The position numbers and the translations under genes were made by a program. DNA of 64,000 nucleotides, from assembly GCA_905331295.1 (NCBI GenBank), contig CAJNYD010000106.1:62001-126000 (forward strand), given 5' to 3'. This stretch comes from Rotaria socialis. Its lineage: Eukaryota. The first letter of the stretch is position 1. The number at the start of each line of letters is the position of its first letter. Positions 2,831 to 40,392 of this stretch are shown here, piece by piece. The notes beneath the pieces were generated by a model, which was given only the letters and a program-made list of their open reading frames with translations, searched no databases and was not told where the DNA came from.

Positions 2831-3376
2831 GTAAGAAATACAATTTTGACCGACTTTCGATACGCAGTCGACACTGCAATTGATCGATGCAGTTTGTAGT
2901 GGTTGTCTGCGTCACAATTTTACTAACGTACTCTAGAGTGCATATATATATATGAAACGTAAGAGGCGACGGCAATAAGCAGCAATTGATCATTTAATTG
3001 CTTGAAGTAGGTATAATAGATCATACAACTAATATGCAAACACATCTACACTTTTACATGTGTGTGCGTGTATATGTGTATAATTTGTAAAGAAAGTATT
3101 TTGAGCCTTGAATTATTGATGCTATTGATCGTTGTCATCATGATGATATCAGATGACACAATAAATGGTCATGCAATATACATGAAGACAATAGAAAGAT
3201 AATGTTGGTTTCTATTCATCTTCCAACGTATATACATTCTGCGCACGTATATATGTGAAAGCAATAGAGCGACAGCCACTTGAAAGTATTAGATTGATAA
3301 GGTATCCTATAAAGAATAATCATTTTTCTCTCTATTCATTTCATATTCACTAAATATTGTTTTTATTTTAATGGAA

Positions 3377-3416
<40 letters not shown>

Positions 3417-3538
3417 TATCGAGGACAATATTGTCAAAGATTTTTCTTCGTCTTTTTACAAACACGAATTAAGTGGATGATTAAAATTAGACCTGGCCGA
3501 TAATGTAGATTATTAATTTTGTTCTATTTTCTTTCCAG
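2831..3538 (+). other. Probable 5'-UTR intron of the giant gene
   Basis: Donor ACG|GTAAGA at 2831 and a pyrimidine-rich acceptor TTTTCTTTCCAG|G ending at 3538, 6 nt before the ATG at 3545. Confidence 0.55.
3382..3410. repeat. (GA)n microsatellite
   Basis: Direct reading. Similar (GA/CT)n tracts lie near 1057, 1673 and 46293, and (TA)n tracts near 1264, 8272 and 40205. Confidence 0.9.
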
Positions 3539-3544
3539 GTTTTC

Positions 3545-6500
3545 ATGGCTGAACCATCGGAAACATCAGCAGGAAATATTAATATTAATTCCAGTTTCAC
3601 CACAGCGATTCAACCAACAAGAAAATTAGGCGGCCGTGGAACACCTCGCCGTAAAACACGTCGACTAAGTAATAATAATAATTATGCAGCATTAGTGGCT
3701 GCACGAACTCTAGAAACTAAATTAAAACCATTCCGTGCACAATACCAATTATATGATCAACAAGAATTATGTGATATTACAATTCTATATGAAGATGGTC
3801 ATGTTGATGTACAAAAGCAAGTTCGTATACATTCAACACGGCCAATGACCCTACATGAGATAGATTCATCGGAAACAGGTGTACAAACATATAATATTAA
3901 TGATCTTGATTCAGCATCCTCTGAATATTTATTTGGTAATCTTGATAGCTTAAAAGCTGAATTCTATTCTGAATCAATACCATCAGCAACACATGCAATA
4001 AAAACTGCAAATGCATCAAATTATTTTACTGGTTTACAACAGCGTCAATTTTATTCTCAACCATCTCATCACTATTTGAATTATACACCTTATCAATATT
4101 ATCCATATGGATATAATTCTTATGATAGTTATACGAATAATATTCGCCAAATATATGGTGATGTTAATGAAAAATCAGAAGATGAAGAAGAAAAAGAAAA
4201 AGGAAAAGAAGAAAACGAGCCAAATCCAGTATCAACAAAATCAAAAAGACGAAGACGTCGACATAAGCACCAACAGAAAACATCTGAACAATCATCATTA
4301 ACTGCACCGCCACCTCCTCCTCCTACTACTACTACTCAAGAAGATGAAATAATCATTGATAAGCCAATTGAACATCTCGAGCATGAAAATATCACAACAG
4401 AAAAACTAACGAAAAATAAACGACGAAGAATACGAAAGCCAAAAAAATCTCTTCCCATTTCTTCTGAAACCGGTGTAAAAATAGAAACTTCTATTAATAA
4501 TGAACAACCTGAACTAAATAACGAAGTCGTTTTGTCATCATCATCATCACCGCCGCTGCCGCCTATTCAATTTACTGAACAAGATTCTTTACGGGTTGAG
4601 TCTGTGAAGCAGCCGCGATTAATGTCAACGGAGTGCGTCAAACATGCGAATAGAAATACTTCTACTGAGCATGTTACGAACGTTCTAAATAAAAGAAAAA
4701 AGAAAGGAAAAAGAAAAGAAAAAGAAGAACTGCGACCAAGAAATTCTTCACGAACAACTACTGACATCAGTTATGATGACTGGACTTCAAACATTAGTGA
4801 CAGTACAAATATTGTTGACATACATAAAAACAATGATATACCCATAAAAAATTCATTACCTATCGCGAACAATGAAGTGATATCAAATGTTTCGAAAAAT
4901 CAAAACCCATCAGCAATAATTATCAGCGAACATGAAAACAAACCATTCAATCAAAATGTTTCTGTGCAGAAAAACAGAAGCAAAAATAAGTTTAATGATC
5001 AACAAAAAATAAAATTATCAAATAGTCAAAAACAATCATTATCGGATCACAGTGAAGTGAGTATTGTATATTTTTCTTTTTTGTTCTTCTTCAGTTGATT
5101 TTCTATAGACTAAATAGAGGCAAACATCTCTTCGTTCATATTTCTCGAAGGGCAAAAACAAGACATTAACGATATGATTAATGCTTTACTTTTATCATTC
5201 ATTTCATACAAAAATAATAATAAATAATATTTTTATATTGACCTTGATCTTTTTTTTATGATAGAGCTACTAAACATGCAAACTACTTATCGTTAGTTAG
5301 AAAAATGATTGATTAAAGCATGCTTAGTTTTAAAACCCACATAAAAATTGCAAGAATGTGTTTTCAGTCATATCTTTTTTCGTCTCGTAAGAGTTATTAA
5401 TATACTTTCAAGGTAAAAAAATGAAAACAGTTCCCTAATCTCAACTAATTCTCATTTAATCATGACTATTTACGAAAGAAGAGTCAAATAAGAAACAATA
5501 TTTTCTTGTTTTCACGTCAAGTTTAAGTTGTATTCAATTGCCAAATAGACAATCGTATCCATCGTATTGCTTTTTACAAGATAAGGATTTATATGACCGC
5601 ACACGCACAGAAAAACTTTAAAAACCCATAAACAACATTTTTCAAAAATAAAACATCGTTCTGCATCATTTAACGATTTTTATCTTAATAACGAACATAC
5701 AAATAAGAAAGTAATTTTCAAAAAAAAGCTTTGTTTTTTCGATACTATCAAATAGAATCGTAATAATGCCTTCATGAATTTGTATTGATCAGACTAAGAA
5801 ACAATAATTATTGACGCAAAACAAAAGAATATCTACGCTAATCAATCAATCAAATAGATACAGACGATATTATAAAAACAAATAAACATTCTTTGATTAG
5901 CAATTAAGCAACGATAGTCTTCAGGTTATATAACTGTATATTCATCATCGCATTGATCATTGCCCTCAGTAATTTTATATTCATACTGAGTTCATATCAC
6001 ACATGCAATTCCTGTTATGTATTCAAAAAGGAAATATAATTCATCAGTATATTTGTCACGTAGAGAAATTATCGCTAATGCATATAGTTCCTTTTCGTAT
6101 GTTTTACGAATATTTAAAACAGGTCGTTACCCTTTTGATTTAATATTATACATCATAAAATAATCTATTGCACGCTTCATTTCTTGAAAACAAAAGAAAA
6201 AATGAAGCAAAAAACAGAAGTTAAATGAGTTTTTTTGTTATAGACTAAAAATAGTCTACGAATATGAGTAAAACTTACACAAAACATATTTTTATTTAAC
6301 ACATCTGTTCCTATTTCTATTCTGTGCTCGATTTCTATTCTAGAACGTCAATACACCGCGAACATCTGATATTAACGAGATATCTTGTTCTAAGAAGAAA
6401 TTCGATATGAATGATGAACGATCAACGACTGAGTCATGTTTGAATAAAGTTCGCAATCAATTGTCATCAAATAACTCAATGTCAACGACGATAGAAGATA

Positions 6501-9500
6501 ATTCTGAACGATCACAGTCAACAACAACGCCAGCTGATATAGCCATCAGTGATGATTTATCAACGAAAGACAGTCACGCATCTGTTAACAGTCGCAAAGA
6601 CGAACATTGTCATGCAACATCACGATCTTCGTTATCCGACGCTGAGAATGTAACAGAAAACTTAACAATCACCAATAAAAAGCAATCACACACAGATTTA
6701 ACCGAAGCAACACATCATGAAGGAAGTCATTTGTTACACATCGAAAATATTAATAAACCAATCGGAACTCATTTGAATCCTGATGCACCAGATTTTAAAC
6801 CAAGTGATACTTCTTCAACGTATCATTCTGAATTGATACCTAGACATTCACAAAGACACGCAGCACATGTAGATTCGCATAGTATTCGTCATCCGCGTAC
6901 ACGCTATTATTCAGACACATATCATTATCCAGAATCTTCAAGTTCAATAGATACATCAACGATAAGACCATTATTATCAATTGTACCACAATATATTCCA
7001 TATGATCCACAATCATGGAGTGCAATAACTCAGTTGCCATCATCAGAAAATGTATGGCGTCCACATGCCTATAACGATGTATCAAATACAGCGTCATCAT
7101 ATTGTTCAAGACCGACTTGTCAAATTTATTCTCCGTTAATGCAACAACAACAACAACAGTCATTAAGCGACGTCAATCATTTGCATAATCAGCATCAAAA
7201 TAAACACGCAAGAAAGCGAACGTGCACTTTTTCTGGCCGTGCTTTGGTTCATACAAATCAAACAAAACCTATAAAGCGACAACGTTCTCTTTCCGGCCCT
7301 GAAACATCTTTGCAATCATCATTGTTGTTATCGTCATCGGAGCATCTTGATGGTATCCATTCTTTAACAAGAATTATGGTTGATATATTACGAAACATTA
7401 ATCAAGTCTCCGACGAACAAAAACAAAAATACGCATCAATGTCATCAACAAATTCAATTGCACATTCGCTAACTCAAAACAAATATCAACAGCCTTCTAG
7501 TCATTCTGATCGGTTTTACTTCGAAAACGAAGAGAAAAGTCAGAAATCTGATGAAACAGAAAATGACCTAGTTGATTACCATATATCTACGAAAGCTTCG
7601 CCGTTATTGCCATTACTGGTCGATAAAGCCACAGGTATTTTTTATGGTGATTAGTTCGTTTCTGCTTCATCTACTCAGGGTGAAGGTGAAAAGCGAATAG
7701 AATAGCGAGACAAAAACACAGAACAGAAAATGCCTGTATCATTGATTTTGCATTACATTTAAGAAAGAAAAATAGCGTCTTAATTTTTTTATGGATGATG
7801 ATGATGGCGATTATTAAGAATACTTGACGAGAAAAAAAACAAAACTACCGCACTTCACTGTATCGGAAGAATACGTAACACTTGACTATTGGAATACATT
7901 ATCGACATAAATATATATATTTATTTATTTTTTCTTTTTCTTTTTCTTTTTCTTTTTTTTTTCTTTTTCTTTCTCATTAATGTTAAGCAGGCGGAAAACA
8001 AAAGGAAGCTAAAAATATGTTTCACTGCACGCTTATGACTACTTAAAATTAGCTTTCTTTTTCATTAAGGCAACGGAGTACAGATCTCATTCGATTCTTA
8101 TATGACCCAGATTAATCTGTACAACGAATTTCTCTTCTTTTTGATGAACTATCAAATTTCTTTATTTGTATAGGAAAAGGCCGAGTTTAATATAAATGAA
8201 CATAGTTACATAGATTAAGATTTGATATAATAACAAAAAATAATCTCTGTATATCGAACATAATTGAACTTTATATATATATATATATGTATATATCTGT
8301 ACACGCAATCAGAGACGATCGTTGACAGATAGAATCCCCATTCAAACTCTTATGTAAAGCAATTCTTTTGTCATTGAAGAATGAATATTGATGAAATATA
8401 GGTTCGTTACTTGATTGTATCATCAATCGTTTTATGTTCGCATAGTTCATTACGATTGTCTTCGAAAACATTAAACGAATTAAAACTCATATGACAACAA
8501 TAGATACTGTATTTAACTATCAAACCAGTGTGTAGCTATGTATTAGATTGAAATATTTGCATTTTGGATATTATATCAAAAGGCAACGACGTTGAAAAAT
8601 GCGTGAGAGTCAATAAAAGAATGCACTGAAGCGTATAGAAAGATGTTACTCATAGAAGTAAAGGTGTCTGTACAATAGCCTGTCATTTGTAATTTTAGCT
8701 GACGGATTCTTTACTTTGAATAATGTCTTTTTGCGCTGTTGGTCTGTGTACGGTTGCATAACCTTTGTCATACTTATTAGTGAAATATGAAAATGATAGA
8801 TATCATTTTTTCTTCTTGTACAAGAAGAAAAACGAAAAAAGTAACTATTTAATGATAGAAATCATTAAATGTTTGTATGCACACAACACTAGAAATTAGT
8901 TTTCTTCATTTGATACTTCAAATATTTTTATCATCGATCGAGTGAATATTTCGATAAAGATCTATTTCGTCCCTTTTTCTTTTTATCGATCAGACCCGAA
9001 TGGACTCTTGAATATTGAATATCAGAAAGAAAAATTTAATGAAAAATTACATGCATATTTTTCTGTTTTAGCTATGCTTGGCGAGAATGAAACCTTGTCG
9101 GCAAATCTTGACAATAATCAACAAAAAAAAATATCATCATCGATGTCGAATGATACAAATGAAAAAAGCATAGTAAATACTTCGTCAACATTTTATGATA
9201 TTACCGATGCGAAAGAATCGATAAAGCCTACGCCTAATACTCTCCCAGGTATGCCTGCTGTTCGAAGAACTAATTGAATTGACGCTAACACATACATGGG
9301 TGTATGCACACATAACTTTTATTTTCGCTTCTTATTTATTATTAACTCTTAGGCAAACTGTAGTACGTAATATTAAAAATACACTTCGAGTCAAAACTAA
9401 TTATAAAATAGACACATCAATCGCTTCACTTTTATCCATCAGTATCGCGTTACATTCATAAATTTTTATTATTATTTTTTTTACTACTGCCTGTTCTTTT

Positions 9501-12500
9501 TACTATCTAGAAAACAATTTTGTTGTGTATGCATATATTTGTCTACACTTGTTGTATGTTTCTTTATTCTTTTTCTCTTATTCAGGACTTTCTACTGGAG
9601 AGCAAGAAAAAGAAAAATCCAGTAATCAAACTCGGTATATGGTAAAAAATCTTGCAGATGAAAATCAACACAAGCAGAACCAGACGAATTCTACACTTGC
9701 ATCATCATCACGTTCGTCTGAGCCAAGTAAATATTTTGAATTCTCTCCCAAAAACAAAATAACTTTATCAAAACCTAAAAAAATCAAGAGTAATTCTAGA
9801 AGAAAAACATAATGTACCCGCCATCGCAGATGACAAATGACGTTTTACAGTAATAGGAGACCTTCAAGCGCAGATACTCTCCATAGTAATATTGATGATG
9901 GTGTGATGAGAAAAAACAAAAGAGAGAAAGAAAAGGAAATCTACGAACAGAAGAAGAAAATTGGATAAGTAAAGAACGAGTATAAATACGAACAAATATG
10001 TACAATAATTCTGAAGGACGCAGAACAAAAGGCAAAGACGCAAAAAAAATGATTTCTTTTTTTATGGGATCGAACCTAGACCACTAGCTATAGCTATGAT
10101 ACGAAAATAGCAATAATAATAACAAAAAAAATACAAAATACTATTCATTATTTTTTTTCCCATTTGCTAATGTCCGTACTTATTTTTATTTCAATGTAAG
10201 AGAATGAATCTATAGAACATAATACTGATTTTGTTAAAAGGAAAAAATACAACAACATCATTATTGATGATAAATCGACGACAGACATATGTACCAGAAT
10301 CTAGCATGCCTATTGTGAATGATACTACTAGCATGTCGGCTGTAACTACTCATGATATTACGACAACATCTATCGAAAACGAGACCAACAACAACAACAA
10401 CAACAACAGCAGCACGAGTAAAAGGGATGAGCAATATGTACATGCTACGCTGAGTGGTGGTGAAAGAGCATCAATGGCTGCATTAGCAAATGTCGACGGT
10501 GGGGCCGAAAATGAAAGAGATGGAGAAAAGGGTGAAAGAGAAAAAAGAGAAGACGGGAATAGAAGAACGCCAACGTCGACGATGGCGAAAACGCAAGAAA
10601 AAACAGAGAGAGAAAGAGCAAAGCAAGCAAATAAATATATAGATTCAGTTACTTCGTTTACAAGCGAGCAGCACAGTTGCCCGAGCGTCGTCCGTCTTAG
10701 TGTTGACGACTCAATGGCGAACCGTGTCTCGGCGCCCTCATTTAATAAAAATAATAATCGTCAAAATATTTCATCGTCGAATAATCGTTCAAGTCGTTCG
10801 ACACTGACAACACACACGTATGCATCGACAAATACAGTAAATACAGAACCAACATATACAACAACACCGATAACGGGTGATCCTCGAACTCTTCATTCAT
10901 ATTATGTCTCATCACAAACGTATTGTCCACCATCGACGAGTCCGACTAATTCATTGACTCTTCATCATCGCGAATATGAACCTTCATATCCATCTATATC
11001 ACGTTATCGTACGCCATCTTCTACATCACCATATCGTAAGGCACATTACCTAGATGATTCGGATGAAGAAATAATCAATGAGGAAATACTTGAAATTACC
11101 GATATTAATCATTATCCAACATTAATCGAACGTTGGGGTGATGACGCGAAAACAGTGGTTAGAGAAGAAGGTGAATTAAAATTTGAAGATTTTGTTGAAT
11201 TTGAAGAAACTGATCCGACTGTTGTGGAAGAAATTTTCTATGAACTTGTCTATTCTGGTGATAATTTAAAAACATGCCGACAAATACATCGTTCACGTTC
11301 TGAATCAAGAAACTTTCGTAAAATAAAGAAACGTCGTACAAGACGAAAACGTCAAACATTAGATGGTACATCAACATTAACATCGCAACCAAGTTCAAGA
11401 GATACGAGTGGTACACGTTCACCATATAAAAATGATAATATAATTAGTCCTGAACGTTCAACTACACCAATACAATCGACACTATCTGATTCGTGGCAAT
11501 CAACTGGATTTCTTGCAGCTGATAAATCATCACTTGATGTATCTGTACGTAATCGTTCTGATGATCAAAATTATGTTAATTACGTACGAGTCAATGAAAG
11601 TGACCCTATTCGTTCACATACTCAAGTTCAACAAGTTCCACAAACGAGAATAGCAACTGGTTATCATTATCCATCGATTCCTATCGATACAAAACCTATA
11701 TCAGGAAGAAATCTATCTACAAATGAACGTGATTCTACACGTCGTGGTGACAATTTAAATGATACTGATCTATTTCGTTCACAACCACAAGTTTCACACA
11801 CAAGAATAACAACTGGTTATCATTATCCATCGATTCCAATCGATACAAAAGTTATAGCAGAAACAAACTTATACAATAATGAGCGTGGTTCTGCACGTCC
11901 TGACAATAATTTAAATGATACGGATGACTTCGTACCAATAATTAGTGAAGAACGAGGAGTAACAAAAATAAATATCACACCAACAAATAATGAATATCAA
12001 ACTAGCGACTTATTGTCAAGATGTCGAGCTGATGTAAATACAACTACATATGAAATTAGTTCTTCGGATGGTTTGTTAACATCTACTAGAACAACAGACA
12101 ATATCGAGCAATCAAGGACAACAATAAACGATCAAACATCTGCTCAGGGAGAAATCAACGACCGTAAGTTATTATTCTTGCTTGCCTTTGTTTCATCATA
12201 AAAGATCAAATAACATAAACATATTATAAATGTCTCTTACAAAAAGAAAACACTGAATTATAATAGACCTAGGACAATAAAATTAATCATTGTAACATTA
12301 TAGAAACCAAAAAAAATAAAAATAAAACCGATTCTTTAATATTGAACTTTGCAAGAAGAATGTCAATATTAGTTCTCAGTATAGCTATATGTCTTTATTT
12401 TAAAAATACTATTTATCATATCGTTGAAGAAACAGAATAATTAATTACTTATTTTTTTGTTTTTCTCAAGGTGAACTGGATTATTCTCATGATAGAGAAA

Positions 12501-15500
12501 AACAAATCAATAAAAAAATTGTGTCAACCGATGATGAACTAGAAAAAGATGATGAAGAACCATCGAGTACAACTGAACAAACAATAAAAGAAATATCAGG
12601 AAGAGATACAGATGAGGATGCATCATTTTCTGAAAATGAACAAATACCATCAGAATCTTTCAAATCAGATGAACAACAAAAAACAATTGAAGATTCTCAT
12701 CCATCATTGTTGTTATCATCATCAACAACAAATGAAAAACAAGATGATCACGAAATTCAACCGACAACAGCCGAGTCATCAATCAATGATTTAGAATCAA
12801 AGTCGCAATCGACATATTCAATTGTAGAACCATCCGAGACAACTATTCATCGAGAGGTAAATTTGTAAAATTCTTCTTTTTTTTGTTATATGCTTATTAT
12901 GGTTTTTTTTTCTTTCTTTCTTTCCTTTCCAGGACATTGAACAAATACAAACAACCGACATTGCTTTACCTAGAATTTCGATTGTAACAACGAAGTAAAA
13001 AGAACATTTTTTTTCTTATGCAAATTATGTTTTGCATGCCTCTTGTGTAGAACTTTATTGGAAAACATTGACACGCAACCTATTGAAATTAGTGTTTCTG
13101 AAGATGAAAAGATATCATCATCATTATCATCATCGTCGAAGGGCAAAACAAGTGACTCAATTGATGAAAGTAATCAAGATCTTCGAGCCTTCATGAACAC
13201 ACTTACAACTCATCTTATGCCTGGATTACCAACATCATTTGATGATGAAACCGAAGATGAACATTCGTTTGTGTCTGAAACAAAATCATCTGAAGAACTA
13301 GTAACACAAGATGAGCAAGTTCTTAATTATATTCCACGAAAATCGATTGAAGATACTAAAGACATATTCGATCAATCATTCGAGGAATTTTCCTTAGAGA
13401 AAAATGATGAAATCAAGTAAATTTTAAAATAACTTAATTTTTTCAATGAACTATTGTGTTTTTTTTTAAATTGTTATTAAGAACGGAAATTGATGAACAG
13501 CAAGACAAAAGCGAACCATCTTCTTCGTTAATTCCTACAATGGAAACTAAAACTTCAACATTTGAACAATCAGATTTAGATAAACAAAGTTCAACAACAC
13601 ACGAAGCAATAATTTTATCGAAAGATTCTCTAGTCAATGTTGTTGAACAAATGAAATCTCAAGATAAACAACATTTAGATCAAGATGAACCTGATAGTTT
13701 TTCTCAGGATTCTTCGACTACAACAACTGAAATATTTGCAACTCAATTACAACCAAAACCAATACTAATTTATGATACAGAAGACGTAACACAAAAGCAG
13801 CCACTAACTGTTAATGATGTTGCTCAAGTTACTAATGAAACGAATTATTTTCAATCTCCTCTTGAGAAAGAAAAAATACTTACAGATACTCAGGAATTCA
13901 TCGAACCGATAACACAACACGATACATTACTATCAGTTGAATCAACAATTGAAAGTAATCAATATGTCATCAAGCTAGACGAAGTACCACAACAACAACC
14001 AGTATCTAGTACTTTATCTGGAACTGATGAAACCATCGAAAAATCAACATCGCACGATGATCAATCATCAGTTGAATCTCAATCAAAACAAGAAGTCGAT
14101 GAGCAAAAACCATTCGAATCTTCAGTAGATATTGTTCGTCAGATGGGTCCTGCACTGCAAATTATTCGTCTTCCATCGACTGATAATAAAACCGAAACTA
14201 CGCATATTTTGCAACAAGACATTGAAAAGTCATTAGTTGACTCTCATGTAGATATCGTATCAACCAGTGAAAGCATTCCCAGTGAACTAGTGACAACGAA
14301 AGAAGATCAACCAGAACATATTTCATACGAAACTATGACAGAATCTATTCGTGAAATTATCAAAGAAATTACAACTCCTTCAGAACAAACATGTGACATT
14401 ACTATGCAACAACAACAAGATGAACATGTTCCTGAAGTGCAAACGTAAGTTATTTGATATGATCATTTTTTTTTCATAATTGAAAATTTCAATTTTTCTT
14501 AATAGTACATCGTCAACATCACTCGATTTACCTGCCACAGAAACTACTTGTCCTAAAAGAGTTGAAGATCATGTTAACGAACAACTTACTACAAACACTC
14601 TTACAACTACTTCGCAAATTACAGACCAAACAGTTTCTGAAGATTATCAACTGACTGCTGACGATCTTGAAAAAACAGGTGAAACCGATCGTCCCTCTTT
14701 GGATGTGTTAACAGAAGCTGCTCGTGAAATAATAACCACAACAACAACTACTTCTATTGATCAGCCATCAGTTATAATAAAAACAGATGCCGTTGAAAGT
14801 GTCGATTTTGTTCCATCTCCATCAACAACATTAGAAAAAATTAACAAAGTAGCAATACCTTTAGATGAAAAAGAAATATCTTTTGAAATACTAACAAAAA
14901 CAACAACAGCAGAACAAAACACATTTGTTGATAAGTACGAAGAGAAACCATTGATCGAAAATCTTGCGACAATTATCCATGAAGATTTGCCAACTACTCA
15001 CCAAGATCAAGAGCAATATGTTTTAGAAACTGTCGAAGAGTCTGTTCAACAACACGAAACACCGAAATTTGATCAACCTCAAATTCAAGAAATCATTCAA
15101 ACAGTTACCGATGAATTTCAACCAGAAACTCATATAGAAAAACATGAAATTGCCGCGGAAAATGTTATCATACCAGATAATGTTCAACAAACATCTGATT
15201 CGCAAATCAAAGCAGAAACAAGCTCGGAACATATAGATTTAGATGAACCAACAAGAACAACATTTACTACTGCAGTTGAAAGCACTAATGAACAGCCAGA
15301 AACAACAAGTCTTTCATCTCTAAATTCGGGAAAAAATGCTCCAGAAACTCTAGTTCTGCCAATTGCTGCTGATCTTCCAATAGTCGATCCTACTGTAAGC
15401 CCGAAACTCGAGAAGGAACAAACAATTCCAAAAACATTAATCGATTCATTTGGTCAAATTACTGGAGCATTCGTAAGAACACTTTCTGGTACAGCACTAA

Positions 15501-24500: not shown

Positions 24501-27500
24501 GTTCCTATGAATATGCTCGAAAATTTGATTTAGAATCTCCTTCAGTTGTATCACATTTGCCTTCAAGAGAATATCATCAAGTATTCGGTGTATCCGAAGA
24601 TATCATTAAAACAGTTGATGATATGACAGATCATGTTCAACAAGCACTCTCAACAGAACTAGAACAAAATCAACAACCGGTTACTTCAGATGAAATATCA
24701 AGTCTACTCTCTGAATCGAATGAAAACTTAGCATCCGAAGATATTCAATCTGCATTGTTCTCTACAGATGCACCTGTTTCCGAGAGTGTAAAAAGAATCA
24801 CAGAAGCACTTGCAGCACTTGAATTCGATCTACGCGCGCAGCAAGATAATATACAATTACATGAAAGTTCATTTCTAGAAACAGATGAACATGTAGTCGA
24901 TGAAAACAATATAGTATCTTCTAAACTTGCAACAGCACTAACTGATGATATCGAACAAGCATTGAAAGATCATCCACCTGTTTTTTCACCTGAAAAGGAG
25001 TTCAGTAATGAAGATTTATTACCAGCAGAAATAAAAAGCGAAAATGTCGGTGAAATTACATCAACGGTTGAATTAGATTCACAATATTCGAAATTACAAG
25101 ATCTAATTGATAGTTTAAAAGAACCATTGGACGATTTACAATCATCTTCATCATCAATTGTTGAACACCAATCAATAACAACAGACATTGAAGAAAAGAC
25201 GGATGATGATTATCATCTAGAAGATCGATATGATACGCTTATTGACCATATTACAAAACTTGAAGAAGCTACACATGAAAGTCTTATTCCTGATACTAAT
25301 CAAGAGGTTGTTCTATTACCACAAGATGATAAATCAGTTGACGATAATATGACCAGTGATGATCTAGTTAAAACAGTCGAAGAAATATTTGCTTCACCTG
25401 TCTGTTCAGTTATTAATCCATATGAAAAAATAGCCAGTGAAGAAGGAATCAACTATTCAAATCTTGCAGTGACTCTCGAACAAATGATCGCACAAACGCA
25501 ATATCCAACAAAATTCACCAAACTAGCAGCACCAACTGACTTAACTTTATCTTCAAATGAACTGGAACAAAAACAACAAGAAGAAACACAAGTAGTAGAA
25601 TCTCACAATGAAATACTTACTTCAACATCCATCGATCAAAAAGAAATATTGAATCAAGACGATTTACCGGAGACAGAAAAAATACAACCATCAAGCATTT
25701 TTGAAAAAGGTAGATCAGCCATTACCGATGCTCTGACACTACTTACTGATGCTACCCTACAATCGAGTACAACTGATGAGATAACTAGTTCGGCAGATTC
25801 GAGTTTCCACGACAACAGTGATCTTCAAGCAAAATTTATAGCAACTATTACGGAGACAACCACAACTACTCAACCAGTAATTACATCTGAAGAAGTAATA
25901 AGCTCACCTGAAACAAAAGATGAACATATCGTTCAGACATCATTGAACGACAATGAAATAAAACCAGAAGACAAACAAATACAAACATTGGCAACAGATG
26001 TATTATCAAGTTCAGCTATTTTATCATCAAGTATGATTCCATCGACAACAACAGAAGTAAATGATACAGAAAAACATGTTGAGAACTCAGAAATCGCATC
26101 GAGCCCAGCAGCAGGTTACTTTAGTAGTAGTGATGTTTATCATGCATACAAACAACCAATTGAACCTGTAATTGAAAAAGAACCAACAACGGAAACTCAC
26201 GATGAAGTCACTTTAGCCAGTCAAGTACCAATCATCGATGAAGAAAAATCAGCTCCAGTCGTAGTCGAACAAGAAGTTGACGTTTTAAAATCAGTTTCAG
26301 AAGAAAAAGAGAGTGTCGATGAAGATACATCATCCGTTGGACTATTGGAAACATTAAAAAGTTATTTACCAGCATCAATTCGATCAACAGAAATAGAAGA
26401 GACCACTTCTGAAACGCCTAGCGTATCAAATACGACAGACGAAGATACTACTACGTCGTCAATGACTGGCTCGATGGTAGCTTCAGTATCAGAAGAACAT
26501 TTGACTGAAAGTGTAGAACCATTAATTGAAGCATCCGAAAAATCATCAATGTCCAGTCCAGTAGCAGGTTATTTCAGTAGTAGTGATGTTTATCATGCTT
26601 ATAAACAACCAATTGAACCGGTCTTTGAAGAAGAACCAGAATCATCCAGTCTGATTGAAAAAGCCACAACAATTGTTAGTAGTATCATTTCTAGTCTCAC
26701 AAGTGCTGTAACAACAACAGACAGTACACAAGATTCGATTTCTACTGTTGATGAAACACTTTCACATTCAGCTGTAGTAGAAGATGAAACTAAAATTTTG
26801 AAACCATTACCCGACGAACAAAATATCCAGCAAGAATCGTTATCGTCACCAATCATGTTAGAAGAGGTTAAAACTGTATTACCATCCGATATTTCGTTAA
26901 CAGCAACAGATCAAATTACTTCTGAAGAACCAGTAGTATCATCGTCGTTAGAAGAAGTCGTAGTAGCGGATGTTCCTGGTGAAGATCTTAGTAAATCAGA
27001 GCAACAAAAAATAGAAACGATGAAACCGGTAGAAATTTCATCACCAGTGACTGGTTACTTCACCAGTAGTGATGTTTACCATGCATACAAACAACCCATT
27101 GAGCCCGTCTTGGAAAAAGAACCGGAATCACCCAGTCTTGTTGAACAAGTCACAAACATTGTTAGTCATATTATCACTGATTTCACAAGTCATTTGCCAA
27201 CATTATCAACAACTGAAACAGAACTCACCAGCGAACCATCGATCACTGAAATAGAGATGTCAGCTCCAATTGCAGTCGATGAAGAAATAATCGCACTAAA
27301 ATCAACTCTAGATGAACAAGAGACTGCGCCAGAGGAAGCATCTTCAACAGGCCTATTAGAAACATTGAAAAGTTATTTACCAGCATCAATGCGATCAACA
27401 GAACTAGAAGAAATCATTTCTGAATTACCAGCTGAGTCAACAAAGATTGATGAAGAAACTGTGGCATCTTCTAGTACTCCTGCAGTAGTCACTTCAGTGT

Positions 27501-30500
27501 CAGAAGAACATTTGACAGAAGGAGCAGAAAGCGAAAAATCATCCATCTCAAGTCCAGTAGCAGGTTATTTCAGTAGTAGTGATGTTTATCATGCTTATAA
27601 ACAACCAATTGAACCAGTCTTTGAAAAAGAGTCCGACTCATCCAGTCTTGTTGAACAAGTCACAAACATTGTTAGTCATATTATCACTGATTTCACAAGT
27701 CATTTACCAACCTTACAATCTCACGAAGAAGTCAGTCAAGCACCAATCATTGATGGAGAAAAATCAACTTCAGAAGAAAAAGTGATTGCCGATGACGATA
27801 CATCTTCCACTGGTCTATTAGAAACATTGAAGAGCTATTTACCAGCATCTCTTCTATCAGCAGAAATCACTTCCGAAACACCAACTGAATATACTAAGGC
27901 TGTGGAAGTAACTGTGCCTTCATCTAGTACAGACACCGTAGCTACTACAGCCACTACAGAACAAATTGAAAAGACAGAAAACGAATTGATGGCAAGTCCT
28001 GTAGAAGATGTCGTACCCGATGTTTCAAGTTCACTGAATGAAGACAAAGTTAAAGTAGACGCTCCAAAATCTGTTGAAAGTGTCGTTCCATCAACTGAAG
28101 AAGTTCAAGAAATGATTGTTTCAAAACCATTGGAAGTTTCGAAAGAAGAACAGCAACAACAAGAATCATCGCCGGTTGTATCTGAAATTACCACGAGCAT
28201 TGTCACAACGACTACTCTACCTGATACCTCCACTATAGACATTAGTAAAGAAGAACCCCAAATAGAACGTGCTCTACCGTTGATGGATATTCAACAACCA
28301 CAACAAGAGCAAGAAGTCTCAGATCAGCAAGAAATTGTTGCTAGCCAGTTTGATATCTCCCATGTAGAAGAACCGGTTGTTGAAGAAAAAGGTTTAACAA
28401 GTGAAAGTGGTCAAGATAAGTCTGCTATTATGGATGCGATTCATGCAGTCCAAGATATTTTACCGACATCAGTTACTTCACATACTGATATCCAAGAAGA
28501 AAAACCAATTTCTAAGGATGACGAACCAGAAATTTTAACCACCACCGTAAGTCAATAAATAATTTTTTTATTTGAATATAACTTTTTTTTTCTGATGTAG
28601 TTACAAACATCAGTAGCTGATGAAATCAAGCACCAAGATAACATTGATTCTGTTGAACAAGATTCATCAGTTAACACAGAAATGATCTCAAATATGGTAT
28701 CTTCCAATGAGAAATCAATTGCTCCTGAAGTTTCCTCTACAGTAGAACAAGAATTGACTGCAGAACAATTAGAAAATTTTGGCATTACTGAAGATAAAGG
28801 ATCACTGATTGAAATTGCTAAAGAAATCCTCGCGGCTCCACTTCAATCTGCTGTTGACAAATATGAAAAAATTATTGCTGAACAAGAGCAGCCAACATCA
28901 ACAACGACTGTTCAAACGGTTGATGAACAAGAAACGTTAACTACGATTACTAACATCGCACAAGATGAAATAACAACACAAGAACAAATAGAACAGCAAC
29001 CATCACAACAACTTCAAGTTATTGGTGATGATTATCCATGGTATTCAAACTATTATACGATTGCTGATGCAGATGGAAAATTAGGTCCATTATACGAAAC
29101 TCTAACAAATACTATCAAACAACTCGAACAAAGACCACCTCCAACGATAGTCGAAGTTCAACCTGAACCACATGAAAGAGTTGTTATACCAGACTATGAT
29201 CATCAAACATTGACTGAGACACAAGATACAAGAGAAAAAGTTCATGAATTAGCTCAACTAAGTGCAACACTTACATCATCGATGACACCAACACAAGACG
29301 AGCAAATCAACGATGAAAACGGATTTCAAGTTGTACATCGTCGAAAACGTGCACCATCATCAACAGCACAAGAAGAGCCATCAACGAATACAAAAATTCC
29401 AAGTGAAACAACTCTCAGTCCAGATATAGATCTCATTCCAGTAGTTATTCACGGACATCCGGTTTCACCAACTAGTTCTATGTCAACAAGTGTCTCAGAA
29501 AATAGTGCAATAACTAGCAGTACAACTAGTAAGAAGAAGCATCACAAAATAAAGAAAGATGAAGAAATTATTTTCTTTGATGCTCCTGTACCATCCATAT
29601 CTGATACGGATAAACACGAGTCAGATACTGCCAAATCAGAAGCAGTTGAAGAACATATGGAAATCCTTGAACCACAAGTATTATCGTTCGTTCATACAGA
29701 TGACTCCACGGAAATCAATCAATCATTATCAACAGTAAAACATGAAATCGACCATCCATCAGACAACATTAAGCATGAGCTCGATCACTCATCAACCGAA
29801 ATCAAACTTCAACAAGATGAACCAACATTGGAAGTAAAATCTCAGCAAGATGAGCCACCAGTCGAAGTGAAATCGCAACCAGACCAACCGTTGGAAGAAA
29901 TAAAACTGCAACAAGTTGACCCATCAGTAGAAGTGAAACCTCAAGAAGACCAACCGTTGGAAGAATTCAAACTTGAACAAGGTGAACCGCCAGTGGAAGT
30001 GAAATCGCAACCAGACGACCCATTGGAAGAAATCAAACCTAAAAAACGTCAATCATTCGAAGAAGTTCAATTTCAACAAGTTGAGCCATCAGTAGAAATG
30101 AAATCTCAGCAAGACCAACCGTTGGAAGAAATCAAACCTCAACAGGGTGAACTATCGGAAGACAAAAAACTTGAAGAAGTCAAGCTTCAACAAGGTGAAC
30201 CATCGGAGGAAACAAAACCTCAACAACTTGAATCACCAGCAGAAATACAGTTTCAACAAGACCAATTATTCGAAGAAATCAAGCATGAGTTGGATCAGAC
30301 CTCAGAAGAAATTAAACTTCAACAAGATCGACCACCGGAAGAAATAAAAGATCAAGAAGATGAGCGATCAGTAGAAGTGAAATCTCAAGAAGACCAACCG
30401 TTGGAAGAAATCAAATTGCAAGAAGGTGAACCATCAGTTGAAGTAAAATCTCAACAAGATGAACCATCGAACAAAATAGATTCTCAGCAAGACCAACCGT

Positions 30501-33500
30501 CAGGCGATATTGGACATGAAATAGATCATCCATCTGAAAACATTAAACATGCGGTTGAGTTATCACATCGAACAGTTGATGAGCTGAAACAAACTTTAAC
30601 AGATACAAACAGTGACGAACAGCGTGGTGAAATTTTGTCAGCATCAGTCGCTTCTGATATCGCAGCACCTGAACAAGTAGATGATGATAATAACGACTCG
30701 ACGTCTTCGGATGCTTCACAGTGGTTGTCATCCTCATTTGTAACTTTTCCAGAAGATGCTAAACTTGATACACATGCCACTGAACAAAATATTGTTACGC
30801 AAGTTGTTTCGACAGCTGTGTTAAGTGAACATGAGTCGGCGAAATCAGAAGTATTGTCAAGTTCATCATCTATTAAGAAGAAGAAAATTAAAGTACGGTC
30901 GGCGGATCAAGAAAAACATCAGGAAGCCGAAGTTATATCATCAACGGTAGTTATTGAAGAACCAAAGGTAGTATCCAAACCAATTTCATTGATACCTGTA
31001 AAGACTACAACAATACCTGTTCTTACTAAAATGACTGTTCCAAAACCAGAACAGAAGGAAGAAGAAAATATCGATGATAATGAAGGTTTTCAAGTTGTTA
31101 CTTATCGTAAACATGTACCATCGACAGCAACGCATGAAAAAGTTCTACCACAATCACCAACACTTATATCTAAAAAACGATCTGGTTCTGATAATGATCG
31201 TAAACAAGCAGCCCCTCGAAGAACTCAAGGTTCATCAATACCTGTTGCTACTACTTCCACTACTCGTCCTGTTTCACACACCAGTACAACAACAAAACAG
31301 AAAATATATAGAAAAGAAACAACATTATCAGACGCTCCATTATCATCAGCATCGACTGATAATGATATCACTTCTTCGTCCAGTATCGGCAAGAGCCGAT
31401 CGAAGGACATGAAACAAAAACCGATGGATCAACCTACAACGAGTAGTATCACAACAGAATCGAAGTCTATATCTTCAACATTCTTGACAACTAGTACTGG
31501 TCCTTTACTAACGGCAGAAATCAAGAGCAAACCACTTCCAAAAAGTGAACAAACAATTCTAGAATCTCAAGCTCCATCATTAATAATAACTACTGTCGAA
31601 GAACCTGAAATCAAATCTGAGCCAATCGTATCAACACCAACGAAAACAACGACAACAACACTTCGTGTAAAAGCATTAACTTCACCAGAAGAAGAAGAGG
31701 AAGATAACGAAGGATTTCGAGTAGTTCATTATCGAAAACGTATATCTTCGGCACCGAGATCAGAGAAAACATCACCAACATTGCCACCACAAGGAAATAT
31801 ACAAAATATGAGTCGTAGTATGGATCCTAAATCGGTAATTATTCATGGACGTCATGGATCAGGATCAAGTTCAATACCACGTTCAAATGCTGGTAACCAA
31901 ATGCCCTATCACAGACGTCAACAAATTAGACCAAAACATGATCGACATCAATTTCCACCAACCCATCCTCCACGTTCACCTGCTTCACAAGAGTCACGTA
32001 TAACGCCATTATTTGGCACGGAAACTCGAACAGTTGAATTAATAAAACCACTAATGAACGATATATGTGAAAAAATGAGTGATGTTGTAATTCAATCACC
32101 ATCGATCGATCAAAAGTCACCGGAAGAAATTTTATACGTACAACCAACAATTATTTATGAGCCACCACAAGCACCGAGCATTGAACATCAAACTATTCTT
32201 CCAGTCGTAAAATCCAAACCATCAGATTCGATTCAACAAGAAATAATAAATGTTGAACATCCAGCTGTTCTTGTTACTGTGCACCCAAAATCATCTGATC
32301 AAGATCAACAAAAAAAGGAAACCGAAATAAAAGATGAACCATTAACTTCGAAAATTTCGGCTCATGTAAATCAATCTGTTCAGAAAGTTGTTGAAGAATA
32401 TCTTACGTCAACAAAAGTCGAGACCAAAAGTCAAGTTCGACAAGTAGCTCCAACGAAAGAAAACATTCTACCAGTCATAGCTAGTACAATTACAACTGAA
32501 TTTCAAAAACGTTCATCAATTGAAGACGAAGATGAAGATGGTTTTCGTGTAGTACGTTATCGTAAGCATGTACCTTCTTCGCCAACAGCAACGATGGCAA
32601 CAACAACGACAACGCCATTTTCTAAGCCATATAGTCACAGTTCGGATAGTGAAAAGAGCCAATCAAGAAGTTCTAGGAAACAAATTTCGTCACCATCTAC
32701 AGTGGCTTCTATAGGAACTACTTCGCAAAGTATGACTCTTAAGAAAAAACCAAAGAAAACTGAAGAAAAATCTGCTGCAGCTGATACAGCTTTACATGCT
32801 GATGTTCGTTCACCGCCAACTACCGATACTGATCTTGTTTCGTCATCAAAAGATGAACCTATCACAAGAACAATAACTAAACATATTGAAAAAGTTGTCG
32901 AATCTCAAATAATAACCAAAGATGTTTCTTCTCCTCTTCATTCAGACAACCAATCTAAATCAACAAAAGAAGATCATAAACCAATACGTCTTCCTGGACT
33001 TGTACAAAAAACATCCGATGATACTCAATATCAAATACAACCAACTGAATCAGCAACATTACTATCAGTAGCAAGTGCTGATACGAGTGAGGATTCATCA
33101 AAGAAAACGAAGAGAAAACATAAACGTCCAAAACAAGAATCCGCTAGAGTAGACATATCGACAACATCCGATGAAGTCTCTAGTACAACTGGCAATATTC
33201 CATGGAAAAAAACGCTAACACCTTCAATTCCATCTCCAAAACCAGCTGTCGAAATTTCATTGACATCCAGTCCAATCGAGGAGAAATCTGATCAAGTTCT
33301 ATTAAAAGAACAAACTCTTCTATCACAACCAACGATACATATTGAAGATGATGAAAGTAAAATAGAGGCCAGTAAAAAACATCCGAAGCAACGAAAGAAA
33401 AAATCACAGTCTAGTGAAAAACACGATCAAAACGACAATAGCTTAACTTCTTCAGCAAGCAGTACAACAGACAAAGATAGTAGTAGTGCAACTAGAGCAA

Positions 33501-36500
33501 CATCTACGAAACCTACTGCAATTGAGTCTACAACTCAAAGCCGTTTAAGAACTGATGATGATAAGCACGAGTCCGAATGGATAGTAGCTCAAAGTAAAAA
33601 GAGAAAATCAAAAGCAGTCGAATCGCCCACTACACCTGAATCGAGTGAACCAAAACTATCACTCTATCCTCATTCAACACTACAGCCAGCAACAACAACG
33701 AAAAGTCCACCAGAAAAAGTGACTGATGTTCAATTTAAATTTAAAAAAAGTGGTGAACTAGTCGTTACAAGTCAAGTACCAATAGAACATTCACCAACTG
33801 AATGGGGTACAGTTATATTTCTATCCGATGAACAACCAAATATTTCACAAAAAGATGAAATTACGGTAACAACTGAAGATATTAGTTCACAACAACCATC
33901 GGTGGTCATTGAACAGCAACCGATCATTGAACAAATAGTCGACATAATTTCTCAAACTGATGATGAAACTAAAATAGAATCATCGCCACAAGCAATCGAA
34001 AGTAGTGAAACCAGTGGTGAAGCTGATTTAGATGCTTATCGTGATCAAACTGGTCGTCTTCGTCGAAAGAAACCACGCAAACATACAACTAGTCTAAGTA
34101 GTAAACCTGAAGATCTACAATCACCACCAACTACTGCTGCTGCTGTTGCTGCTGCTGCTACTACAAATACTGAGCCAGAATCATCTGAAGAAACTAAATT
34201 TGACCGTAAAACTACCAGCGAACATTGGGCTATTGTTTTAGACGCTCCAATATCGAATACAGATGACGAAGAGAAAGTTCAAGCTAAACTAATTCAACAA
34301 GAAAAACCAACTGAAGATGAAGACAGCAGTGAAACAAGTAGTAAATTAGACTCATTTCTACCTGAATATATTCGTCAGCAAATCAAAGCTGAATCATCAG
34401 CACGTTCATCATCTTTACCTGGTCATCGTTCAAAATCATCATCGAATGAACCAACAATGCCTGATGTACATACACGTACAACGCGTGCTGAATTTCCATC
34501 AACATCACATCAATCAACAAGTACGGATACATCGGAAAATGAAAGTCGAAAATTTGTAGGTGAACCTCATGAAGAAGAAAATCATTCAACAGAAGATTCA
34601 CGTTCTCTGTCGACATCGAATCAAATTGAACATGATACAATCATAACGTCATCTTCATCCATTTCATCTGCTGCTGCACCTAAAAAAAAACAACGGCCTA
34701 AAATGTTAAAAAAAGATATTGAAGCTACAACATTATTAACGCATGAATTCGATGATACACCATTGACTATCACTGAAATTCAAGCAGCGTCAACAACAAC
34801 AACAGCAACAACACAAGACGATGAATCATTTTTATCTTCAACAACTAGTCAATCTATTTCAGCGATTACGGATTCGGTGATATCATCTTCATTATCTGCT
34901 CATAAACAAACTCCCACTAATGAACAAAAGTCTCTTCAATCGGATGAGCCACTGTCATCAATTGAAGAACCGCCAACTAGTTCTATTTTAACAATTACAG
35001 AACCAACAACAACCATAATAATGAGAAAAAAAGCATCAACTCGTTCACCTCGTAAACGTTCAAAACGAGACAGTGGTCCTGATTATGAAAATGTAATAAC
35101 TCCAACATTGGACGATGTCGAACAAGCATTTGCTGATGATCGAGTGATGACAACAGCCGTTGATAATGATCAAACAGATTTTATTAGAGTTGAAACTCAT
35201 AAGCATCAATCACGACAACGAACATCATCGGGTCGACAAATCATAAATAGCCAAGAAGATAATGAACAACAAGCTATATTAGCTGACGATGAAGAAGATG
35301 ATGACTTTGCTGTCAAACCTATCGTATTACATGGAACTGGTGTCGGTACAAATGTTCAAACACCAACTGAATCGGCTATTGAACAACACGATTCATCGGC
35401 AACAGCAACAGCAACAACAACAGCAATAACAACATCGAAAAAGAAACGACAAAAGAAGAAAAATGCAACTGAAGAAGTTGAATTCATTGCAAAAATACCC
35501 GATGAATTAAAATCTGATAAAGATGATACATCAGTATCAGAAGAACAACCAGAATCACCTAATGAACAATTACGACCAGTTCAAGGTTTTCATTCATTTA
35601 CACCGAATAAATATCAATACAATCAATATGAAGAAGTACCAGCAGCTCCAACTGAACAAACAGTAACTTCAACGGCAAGTACGACAGCTACTACAGAAAA
35701 TAAAGATGAAGTTTTTGCCCGTGGTTTTAATCTATGGTTAAAACAAAACAATGACAATGAATCAAGTTCAACAGTAAAGAAAGACGAAACAGAAGAGCCA
35801 TCACAACAACAACCAGAAGCAGTTAGTGGTTTAACTCGTGCAATGCAGAGTCTCATTATTCAACCAGTTGAAAGTGACAACGATGAAGAAGAAGATGATG
35901 AAGATGATTCATGGAACGGACCACGAGCTAAAAAGCCAACGTATACAACAGGTGCGCGAGCCGAAAAACGAATTCATACATCTAGTGGATATAATGTAAA
36001 TCATCCACGATCAGTCGCTATTTCACCTTGGCTAATGCCAAAATCAAACGATAATACATATCAAGATGATTCATCGAAGTATGATCCAAATGACTCATCA
36101 AAATATGATCCCGATGATGAAGAAGATTCGATAAATGATGCATCCGATAGATTGCAGCTATCTCATCCAATTAATACACAATTTTCGACAAAAGAAGAAC
36201 GACAAATACATCTAAATAGTTTAGCTGACTTAACATTTCAAGCAACTACCAATACTTTATCTTCTTCGACATCATCATCATTATCATCAGCAGTCAAATG
36301 GAATGAAACACCAATACGTACTGATGAAACTGTTCCACTGCAGACAAATTTTACCGATGATGACGTACAACGATGTTTAGGCGAAGATTTCTATCGAGAA
36401 TCATTAGCTGTAGATCCACTTCATGCTGAAAAACGAGCACTAGCAAGTTTAAGTGATCTTGTTTTAAAGCCAACTCAGCAATTAGAAGAAACAGACAATG

Positions 36501-37048
36501 ATGACGATGATATCGATGATGATAGTCAAAGTAATGAAAACAATAAAAATAATAATAATAATAATACTTCAAATAATTTCGATGAATGGGGGCATTTTCT
36601 TGACTATGATGATGAACAAAACATAATTCTATCATCTGAATCGACATCATCGAGAATTCTTCAACCACGTGTATTAACATCCTATGAATGTTCATATGCA
36701 CGAGAATTAGATGATGATACACTTGTAACTGACGCTGATCGTTCACATTTAATAGACTATACTCAGCATTCATATGAACATGAACGACAACGCTATGGTG
36801 ATTTTGCGTGTACAAGCGATGATTCTAGTGTGACACAATCGATGACTAATCCTTCTTCAATATTGACAAATTCAAATATACCGAGACCCTCAGAAACATT
36901 TCAGAGATGGCGAAATCAATCAAATCGTGATCGAGACGAATCGGATTCACGCGTAACAACCATATCAACAGAAGATCAAAATGACGATGAAATATTTGTA
37001 TCACATACAGACGGCGGTCTTAGTCGACGAGTGAGACCAACACAATAA
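3545..37048 (+). CDS. Giant (about 9,795 aa) acidic, repeat-rich, mostly disordered protein with an N-terminal NAC-beta/BTF3-like domain and a PAM2 motif; 11 coding exons
   Basis: Hand-spliced GT-AG exons: 3545-5056, 6344-7634, 8994-9248, 9586-9726, 10241-12163, 12471-12856, 12933-12994, 13051-13416, 13482-14444, 14506-28546, 28601-37048. Junction phases 0,1,1,1,1,0,2,2,2,0 all match, and the total of 29,388 nt is divisible by 3. Exons 6-11 are joined by short (54-76 nt) introns and are very secure; exons 5 and 6 are joined by a 307-nt intron. Linkage of exons 1-4 across longer introns is less certain. Confidence 0.8.
11600..11930 (+). repeat. Two-copy 156-nt (52 aa) internal duplication containing TGYHYPSIPIDTK
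   Basis: ACTGGTTATCATTATCCATCGATTCC occurs at 11656 and 11812. Confidence 0.9.
16085..22400 (+). repeat. Coding tandem array of about 21 units (mostly 300 nt/100 aa and 345 nt/115 aa), core DHVSTEALTEAVREII
   Basis: Core starts at 16085, 16430, 16775, 17075, 17411, 17711, 17951, 18251, 18596, 18896, 19241, 19541, 19841, 20141, 20441, 20741, 21086, 21353, 21686, 22004 and 22352. All spacings are multiples of 3. Confidence 0.95.
26080..27860 (+). repeat. Second coding repeat family: 4x SSP(V/A)(A/T)GYF(S/T)SSDVYHAYKQPIEPV and 3x GLLETLKSYLPAS
   Basis: Copies of the first motif lie near 26098, 26549, 27038 and 27548; copies of the second lie near 26339, 27350 and 27812. Confidence 0.92.
29740..30550 (+). 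repeat. Coding minisatellite, 33-nt (11 aa) unit in alternating 22-aa pairs, e.g. KLQQDEPSVEV-KSQQDQPLEEI
   Basis: Recurrent GACCAACCGTTGGAAGAAAT and CCATCAGTAGAAGTGAAA-like units; roughly two dozen degenerate 11-mers. Confidence 0.9.
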
Positions 37049-40000: not shown

Positions 40001-40196
40001 ATTTATTATCGATGGATTTGCTACTCTTTGTACCATTTAGTCTATTCAGCATCCAGCTGAGTCAAATGGGCCAATCCGCATTTCTATTACATCTTCGCTT
40101 GATAATGGAAAATACTGCGATAAAGAATAAGTTATAGAAGAACACAAAAAGGAATAAACGATAGTTCTTATGTTCATTCAGCCTCTACACATACAT

Positions 40197-40230
<34 letters not shown>

Positions 40231-40240
40231 ATCTATATAT

Positions 40241-40392
40241 ATGTTGTAGTGGAAATTAAAATTCAGTAGAATTTAAAATCCTACTAGTAGAAATTGAAAT
40301 TTTAGTTTCTACTATAGGTAAAATTCAGTAGAATTTCAATTTCTACTAGTAGAATTTTAAATTCTACTGAATTTTAATTTCTACTGCGACAT
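40241..40392. mobile_element. MITE-like foldback element embedded in a (TA)n microsatellite
   Basis: 61-bp arms (40241-40301 and 40332-40392) are reverse complements with 4 mismatches around a 30-nt spacer. TA runs lie on both sides and there is no coding capacity. Confidence 0.7.

Follow-up and report, generated by a model that had tools for sequence, protein, structure and literature searches.

The 64,000-nt window analysed here, a stretch of the genome of the rotifer Rotaria socialis (all coordinates are in window numbering), appears to hold one bdelloid gene that is spliced and polyadenylated and has an internal start at a spliced-leader site. Its predicted product, mostly disordered and acidic, would have a mass of 0.98-1.08 MDa and likely serves as an elastic tether or spacer between two cellular structures. 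As a whole, this reading has in our judgment even chances of being right. Among its parts, a giant product spanning exon 3 to exon 11 is quite probable, and a full-length form that includes the N-terminal head encoded by exon 1 is slightly favoured. An earlier note on this DNA had joined ten open reading frames and a 62-nt exon through ten phase-matched GT-AG introns into a chain of 9,795 amino acids (aa), and this computed join was reproduced: the eleven exons amount to 29,388 nt with a single stop codon, at the very end, each of the ten introns is of the GT-AG type with matching phases, and the chain has a mass of 1.087 MDa and a pI of 4.5, with 12.0% E, 11.8% S, 11.4% T and 6.3% P. On the forward (+) strand, which carries every feature of the gene described below, exon 1 (3539-5056, ATG at 3545), an optional 5' extension, is followed by exon 2 (6344-7634, phase 0 to phase 1), exon 3 (9072-9248 after correction of its start), exon 4 (9586-9726, with a Met kept in all five sequences read there), exon 5 (10241-12163), exons 6-9 (12471-12856, 12933-12994, 13051-13416 and 13482-14444), exon 10 (14506-28546) and exon 11 (28601-37048, including the stop codon); the 14,041-nt and 8,448-nt exons of the earlier note are present as exons 10 and 11. 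The acceptor previously assigned to exon 3, 8993/8994, had to be abandoned: the homologous site reaches a stop in one comparison locus (L009) and is without AG in another (L005), contigs of both runs described below begin at 9070, and the acceptor in use is 9071/9072. Consequently, the full form would count 9,769 aa, and 9,795 aa is not likely the size of the product.

Transcript evidence comes from two contig sets, X2, which is near-identical to the window, and X1, which differs by several percent and represents a related species. Both sets are without an RNA record and are taken as transcripts solely from their spliced joints, leader and poly(A); their contigs are shallow and show presence only. 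Two of the ten junctions are bridged, namely 9726/10241, joined in X2 with 0 differences and by an equivalent joint in X1, and 12163/12471, joined in X1, so that contigs span both junctions of exon 5. The exon 4-exon 5 join had been singled out beforehand as a possible point of refutation, and its bridging in X1 and X2 favours one gene. After 9248, an X1 contig carries a 14-letter loose end that agrees with the start of exon 4 at 10 of 14 letters in the window and at 13 of 14 in L005. Pieces of exons 1 and 10 are also covered by X1 contigs (e.g., 24544-24906 in exon 10). Downstream of the stop codon, an X2 contig ends with a poly(A) loose end after 38124, 26 nt beyond the AATAAA at 38093, which delimits a 3' untranslated region (UTR) at 37049-38124. 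The indels listed for X1 are multiples of three in six of six cases in the coding part of exon 11 versus one of four in the UTR. Contig joints at 12736/13114, 22963/35655 and 25268/38499, with sides of 20-24 letters and non-canonical ends, were discarded as noise.

Further joins are found in related sequences, which comprise comparison rotifer loci (L003, L005, L009 and L015, the last a paralog; L004-L008 are >99% identical and are therefore counted as one locus) and database protein models (P-numbers). Exon 2 is joined to exon 3 in P0001, P0002, P0008 and P0035, the models of three species, Adineta steineri, R. sordida and D. carnosus, continue from exon 2 as far as exon 5, and P0057 extends from exon 2 into exon 10, while P0019 and P0017 hold matches to exons 10 and 11 within one chain. 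P0008 of D. carnosus joins the head, the PAM2 motif and the hairpin domain described below. Exons 1 and 2 look like parts of the same gene, judging from the phases 0/0 and 1/1, which hold in L005 (where the phase-0 donor of exon 1 is kept), and from exon-2 read-through tails that vary between species.

The internal start lies at exon 3. Where the X1 contig begins, at 9070, its loose end followed by AG is the 23-nt rotifer spliced leader given as Rotifera 1 in Table 1 of PMC3795323. The acceptor is followed by an in-frame ATG at 9074, and the arrangement TTTAG/NT-ATG (acceptor at the slash) recurs in all four distinct loci, i.e., the window, L005, L009 and the paralog L015. The form started from this leader, which was read in the run of the related species, is computed at 8,834 aa (978 kDa) and is without the NAC-beta-like head and the PAM2 motif. 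Intron 2 contains conserved non-coding blocks (8647-8925) that are candidate internal promoter or outron elements: the blocks at 8647-8712 and 8852-8925 are 77% identical to L005, whereas in intron 1 none of the 1,287 nt is conserved, and they would fit an internal promoter. A third form of 1,002 aa, in which exon 3 runs into the read-through tail at 9249-9277 (GMPAVRRTN and a stop), is suggested by the conservation of this tail, which is similar in L009 and ends A. vaga UJR26384.1 (938 aa); one extra base breaks its frame in L005. A separate Met lies some 20 codons into exon 2 (6344-6410); L005 has it as well, and A. steineri P0001 begins with it. Exon 2 may therefore be a second trans-splice acceptor.

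The same observations can be read as two overlapping transcription units that share exon 3, with no chain comprising both. The upstream unit (exons 1-2-3 plus the tail, 1,002 aa) would then be a NAC-like/PAM2 translation factor, and the downstream, leader-capped unit the 8,834-aa giant. The leader and ATG on exon 3, the blocks in intron 2, the conserved tail at which the A. vaga protein ends and an ATTAAA at 9372 all fit such an arrangement, for which the Leashin locus of Neurospora, split by an internal promoter and an intragenic end into lah-1 and lah-2, offers a precedent (PMC2690989). However, the models of three species run from exon 2 through exon 5, the frame of the tail is broken in L005, and splicing of exon 2 to exon 3 leaves an ordinary exon-3 donor usable. 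We consider two separate units unlikely, though a serious contender.

The head (aa ~24-135) is encoded by exon 1. Its basic motif KLGGRGTPRRKxRR (3623-3664) resembles the N-terminal ribosome-binding motif of NAC-beta, RRK(X)nKK (PMC5986199), with RR replacing KK; 13 of its 14 positions are invariant in 14 aligned sequences, and RRK is invariant in all 14. The Pfam NAC model matches none of the 14 head sequences at E up to 5, no NAC chain among the PDB sequences is matched by the head in phmmer or profile searches, and no BTF3-sized canonical protein occurs among the 17 phmmer matches of exon 1. A structural model of the head (predicted local distance difference test, pLDDT, 51.6; predicted template modelling score, pTM, 0.16), too poor for fold searches to decide, places a helix at 45-66 and strands at 72-81 and 87-96, an order that we take to agree with that of NAC domains. 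It had no match in Foldseek at E 0.001 and a best VIA Z of 2.7. In the atlas BTB ranked first (0.84), which is no more than a lead; KLHL3 among the PDB sequences points the same way at a non-significant E of 0.51. The identification of the head as NAC-beta in the earlier note was thus not borne out and comes down to a resemblance of motifs.

The PAM2-type motif claimed earlier, which exon 2 encodes, held up. LNPDAPDFKP (6773-6802, aa 648-657) stands in a disordered region and fits the consensus LNxxAxEFxP (PMC7356810) except for D in place of E, keeping L, N, A, F and P; 0 of 300 block shuffles reach a PAM2 match, and the motif is conserved in seven proteins and in L005, the species being A. 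steineri, A. vaga, D. carnosus and R. sordida. The Pfam PAM2 profile scores 12.1 bits, versus a cut-off of 20, on a 20-aa piece without the first six positions of the profile, and finds no match in whole exon 2. If the full-length chain were the main product, it might be a leash holding ribosomes (through the head) and PABP-bound messenger ribonucleoproteins (mRNPs; through PAM2) at a distant structure. The near-consensus PAM2, kept in four genera-level relatives, the invariant RRK and the predicted helix followed by two strands speak for this rather improbable reading; the leader-capped form without head and PAM2, the null result with Pfam NAC and several complete paralog models that begin in exon 5 speak against it. 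The link to ribosomes and poly(A)-mRNPs proposed in the earlier note is weakened: it depends on exons 1 and 2, which the leader form leaves out, and on an unproven NAC-beta identity. Still more speculative, and improbable, is a 9,769-aa translation leash in which a degenerate NAC-beta head and PAM2 would hold ribosomes and poly(A) mRNPs, the hairpin domain would anchor or self-assemble, a linker of micron contour would lead to the endoplasmic reticulum (ER) or cortex in syncytial tissues, and trans-splicing at exon 3 would remove the head, so that one gene would yield either a tether for localised translation or a plain structural spacer.

The protein itself is E/T/S/P-rich, predicted to be largely disordered and without recognised Ig, FN3, ankyrin or spectrin domains, as previously described from its sequence. 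FoldIndex gives negative values for 76% of positions, the exon-10 linker carries a net charge of about -0.15 per residue, and no family reaches the Pfam cut-off in the nine of 11 exons scanned (the 141-nt and 62-nt exons fell outside the scan). Ig/FN3, ankyrin-ZU5-death and spectrin/CH domains have no Pfam match in these nine exons or in ten relatives. The absence of a transmembrane segment also agrees with the hydrophobicity profile, which has no clean transmembrane stretch; three acidic residues occur even in the 19-mer of highest hydrophobicity (1.65). All three repeat families noticed earlier were found. Family 1 (16394-20806) consists of units of ~100 aa, each with a VSTEALTEAVREII amphipathic helix, and gives 15 strong and three weak profile matches, as against none in 20 shuffles, with a Tandem Repeats Finder period of 300; six to nine weaker copies occur in A. 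steineri P0001/P0057. Family 2 (26111-27886, near aa 6,170-6,760) contains four copies of AGYFSSSDVYHAY and three of LLETLKSYLP, and family 3 (29798-30468, in exon 11) is built of 11-aa-based E/Q/P/K units.

Exon 5 encodes the domain that defines the family (11044-11349, aa ~1335-1436), predicted to comprise a short alpha/beta cap and a beta-hairpin of 27 and 29 residues in which an acidic strand is set against a basic one. Thirty-seven columns are invariant in 11 sequences, and blocks 91-120 of the model have a pLDDT of 86-97 (64.6 for the whole model). Foldseek returned nothing at E 0.001 (best Z 4.1, with a root-mean-square deviation of 4.6 over 59 residues), and no usable atlas match or significant PDB sequence match was found. 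The null results of the fold searches for head and hairpin do not establish a new fold.

At the other end, exon 11 holds a DYPWY/DxxGFQVVxRRK/basic tract plus IFFDAP module (29003-29596), single in the window and repeated in paralogs (modules up to ten times, with up to seven FFD sites), and a C-terminal cluster of conserved motif islands (33707-37048), several of them common to paralogs. In nine orthologs, the closest relative left out, ~596 of 2,815 exon-11 columns lie in high-identity islands, a count in which overlapping islands may have been entered twice, versus a mean identity of 41%. The site IFFDAPV resembles the FFAT core, E-F-F-D-A-x-E with an acidic tract upstream; 24 of the 34 FFDA sites in relatives end in E, and the core is good in paralogs and weaker in orthologs. 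Among other short motifs, RVxF is below chance (1 versus 3.2 expected) and SxIP above it (28 versus 19), with only the site at 8070 partly kept among the six SxIP sites checked. An acidic-FxxV-basic pattern was derived from the giant protein itself, and its shuffle test is therefore circular.

All named relatives are bdelloid rotifers (nine of nine for exon 5; for exon 11, the 11 named of 21), the closest being a fragment from Rotaria magnacalcarata at 85%. For exon 1, phmmer found 17 relatives among 1.84 billion proteins, and of the seven looked up two carry species names, A. vaga and A. steineri. The protein search covers proteins up to 5,000 aa and returned one protein of 3,513 aa, so full-length relatives are neither shown nor excluded by it. 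The paralogs P0005 (2,473 aa), P0022 (3,827 aa), P0023 (3,744 aa), P0028, P0029 and P0003/4 (~1,500 aa) have the hairpin domain and C-terminal motifs in common, and the family plan is a hairpin domain near the N-terminus, motif islands at the C-terminus and an acidic linker of variable length between them. In the hairpin-domain tree (midpoint root, many open forks), a paralog group of 10 of the 22 rows (support 100/99) stands apart from the group of the window. That the architecture belongs to no named family, as first suggested, agrees with the Pfam null and with the exclusively bdelloid named relatives. No publication on the family was found in the literature surveyed, and the A. vaga locus numbers had no match in the one supplementary file of PMC10809525 consulted. 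From these comparisons, the gene apparently belongs to an undescribed, lineage-specific bdelloid family of giant disordered scaffolds.

By analogy, such an architecture would suit a tether, a role that we regard as evenly poised. We propose that the hairpin domain, with its predicted fold, may anchor one end, that the C-terminal islands and the repeated DYPWY/GFQVV/IFFDAP module may bind partners at the other, possibly reaching the ER membrane through the FFAT-like site, and that the acidic linker may set distance and provide elasticity, its spaced amphipathic helices making secondary contacts. The longer form from exons 1 and 2 would add the PAM2 site and the NAC-beta-like basic head, and promoter or leader choice would thereby decide whether the protein is linked to the translation machinery. 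With ~0.36 nm of contour per residue, the giant chain would have a contour near 3 micrometres and a relaxed span of about tens of nanometres.

Several points weigh against the reading of a single gene that encodes a tether. The joins of exons 1-2 and 2-3 and those at six later introns are drawn from phase, homology and automated models; X1 and X2 contigs list no joint at 5056/6344, at 7634/9072, at the four introns in 12856-14506 or at 28546/28601, and leave much of exon 10 without cover. In the annotations of A. steineri, A. vaga and R. magnacalcarata the locus does not form one gene but several, and that of A. steineri keeps exon 1 as a gene of its own. The leader was seen in one X1 contig, from the related species, and X2 has five unaligned letters at that position; the ATG after the exon-3 acceptor is Val in P0001, P0002 and P0035, where a start would consequently need the Met of exon 4. 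The hairpin model has a pTM of 0.34 and derives from 11 sequences. In nine orthologs, the FFAT-like site reads LFD in five, FFD, FFE and LSD in one each and a gap in one, and the tract upstream is basic (KKKHKK-type) rather than acidic, with at most a few acidic residues between. The tether or ruler of the earlier note stands in so far as conserved ends around a linker of variable length fit it, and its role is argued from architecture and analogy.

A different function is also conceivable, in which the protein is a multivalent signalling or stress scaffold, AKAP-like or an LEA-like hydrophilic desiccation matrix, and its length reflects repeat expansion instead of a measured distance. A loose pattern for PKA-anchoring helices has 32 matches where shuffles average 13.5, AKAPs are known to contain FFAT-like sites, and the motif modules recur up to ten times in paralogs. 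Nevertheless, the excess comes from one repeated helix, the pattern fits any amphipathic helix, and conservation is much stronger at the two ends than in the repeats; in our view this scaffold is improbable. That the giant exons are usually skipped or shortened, as in isoforms of giant ankyrins, leaving an everyday product of a few thousand residues, is very unlikely: paralogs work at 1,500-3,800 aa and linker exon boundaries vary between species, yet exon 10 is stop-free over 14 kb with pieces covered by X1 contigs, and the loss of exon 10 alone would put the chain out of frame, given that exon 9 closes in phase 2 and exon 11 opens in phase 0.

The introns of the giant gene show change within the family. 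Over its whole length, intron 4 (9727-10240) can be aligned with sequence that forms an in-frame open stretch in L005 and L009 and belongs to the coding part of A. steineri P0001. The copy in the window is interrupted by frameshifts and stops, and both X1 and X2 splice it out. Intron 4 thus represents coding DNA that has decayed and become an intron. It is comparable to exitrons and intronisation in being coding sequence with internal splice sites in relatives, and differs from exitrons (PMC4484396) in that the retained frame has been lost in the lineage of the window, so that splicing is obligatory for the long product. Introns 6 and 7 are absent in L003 (2025-2741) and L005 (11448-11897), where the equivalents of exons 6-8 form one open frame, and similar introns split them in L009 (4315-5244), so that introns have been gained or lost inside the linker. 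Intron 5 opens with ~140 nt (12164-12306) that show 76% identity to L009 and resemble L003; these may contain a splicing element.

Among known systems, the closest likeness is to Leashin/Lah of the Pezizomycotina, a strongly acidic protein of 10,821 predicted aa with three repeat regions and conserved ends (PMC2690989). The two share a predicted gene of ~10,000 aa, three repeat regions and conserved ends around a poorly conserved acidic linker of variable length. In contrast, the rotifer gene is from an animal, which is without Woronin bodies, its internal start arises by trans-splicing, and its end domains and motifs are others. No Leashin homology was found in the terminal domains, all named matches of exons 1, 5 and 11 being bdelloid (among proteins up to 5,000 aa, with a word index that can miss distant relatives); the likeness is therefore one of analogy, and the giant protein is not a Leashin member.

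In titin and the invertebrate giant muscle proteins, too, giant exons encode E/P/V-rich disordered stretches, whereas the rotifer protein is S/T-rich and K-poor, and no Ig, FN3 or kinase domain was detected in it. A comparison with PEVK is made in PMC2690989. NACA and BTF3 invite comparison through the RRK basic motif of the rotifer head. The gene of skNAC likewise combines a NAC-like element with very large exons rich in S/T/P/E; the rotifer head differs in being N-terminal and optional, with no NAC profile match, RR for KK and no UBA detected. Giant ankyrins and Futsch/MAP1B likewise have multi-kilobase acidic exons with short repeats, and long and short isoforms; ankyrin, ZU5, death and MAP1 domains were not detected in the rotifer protein, and its SxIP sites are mostly not conserved.

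Upstream of exon 1, an untranslated exon may be inferred from the acceptor at 3538/3539. A probable non-coding first exon at 2744-2830 has a donor, GTAAGA at 2831, that pairs with this acceptor, and 2744-2825 is 76% identical to L005. L005 is an orthologous locus with the same permease gene upstream. In the window, the first coding exon of this amino-acid permease gene lies at 1-281 on the reverse (-) strand, so that the two genes are divergent; its match to Pfam AA_permease_2 (E 0.0015) stays short of the cut-off, the same neighbour in L005 is at 76%, and non-coding blocks at 808-872 and 2974-3019 between the two genes are conserved with L005 (75% and 85%). Downstream are an AT-flanked element at 40191-40400, perhaps what is left of a small transposon, with direct and inverted units of the AGTAGAATTT type that measure 17-21 nt; a multi-exon gene at 41851-45926 (+) with an N-terminal poly-Asn run, four exon pieces of which are without notable Pfam match and which is presumably HSPA12-like (VVAIDFGTT motif); an apparently intronless short-chain dehydrogenase at 50975-51780 (-; adh_short_C2, E 1e-35); a gene at 53934-56470 (-) in which a weak ADP-ribosyltransferase-like region, with an E of 2e-4 that misses the cut-off, precedes TPR repeats; and a CFAP69-like ARM-repeat gene at 58724-62707 (+; E 6e-34).

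The public annotations compared split the locus into unnamed pieces, and the family thereby stayed invisible. Its natural paralogs of ~1,500-9,000 aa with common ends make the idea of a ruler or tether testable by comparing spacing. If the reading proposed here is true, bdelloids have a megadalton animal protein without the Ig, spectrin and ankyrin modules usual in giant animal proteins, and the plan of Leashin would have been reached independently. The locus would also be a clear case in which trans-splicing yields an isoform with another N-terminus and in which a coding segment is caught becoming an intron.

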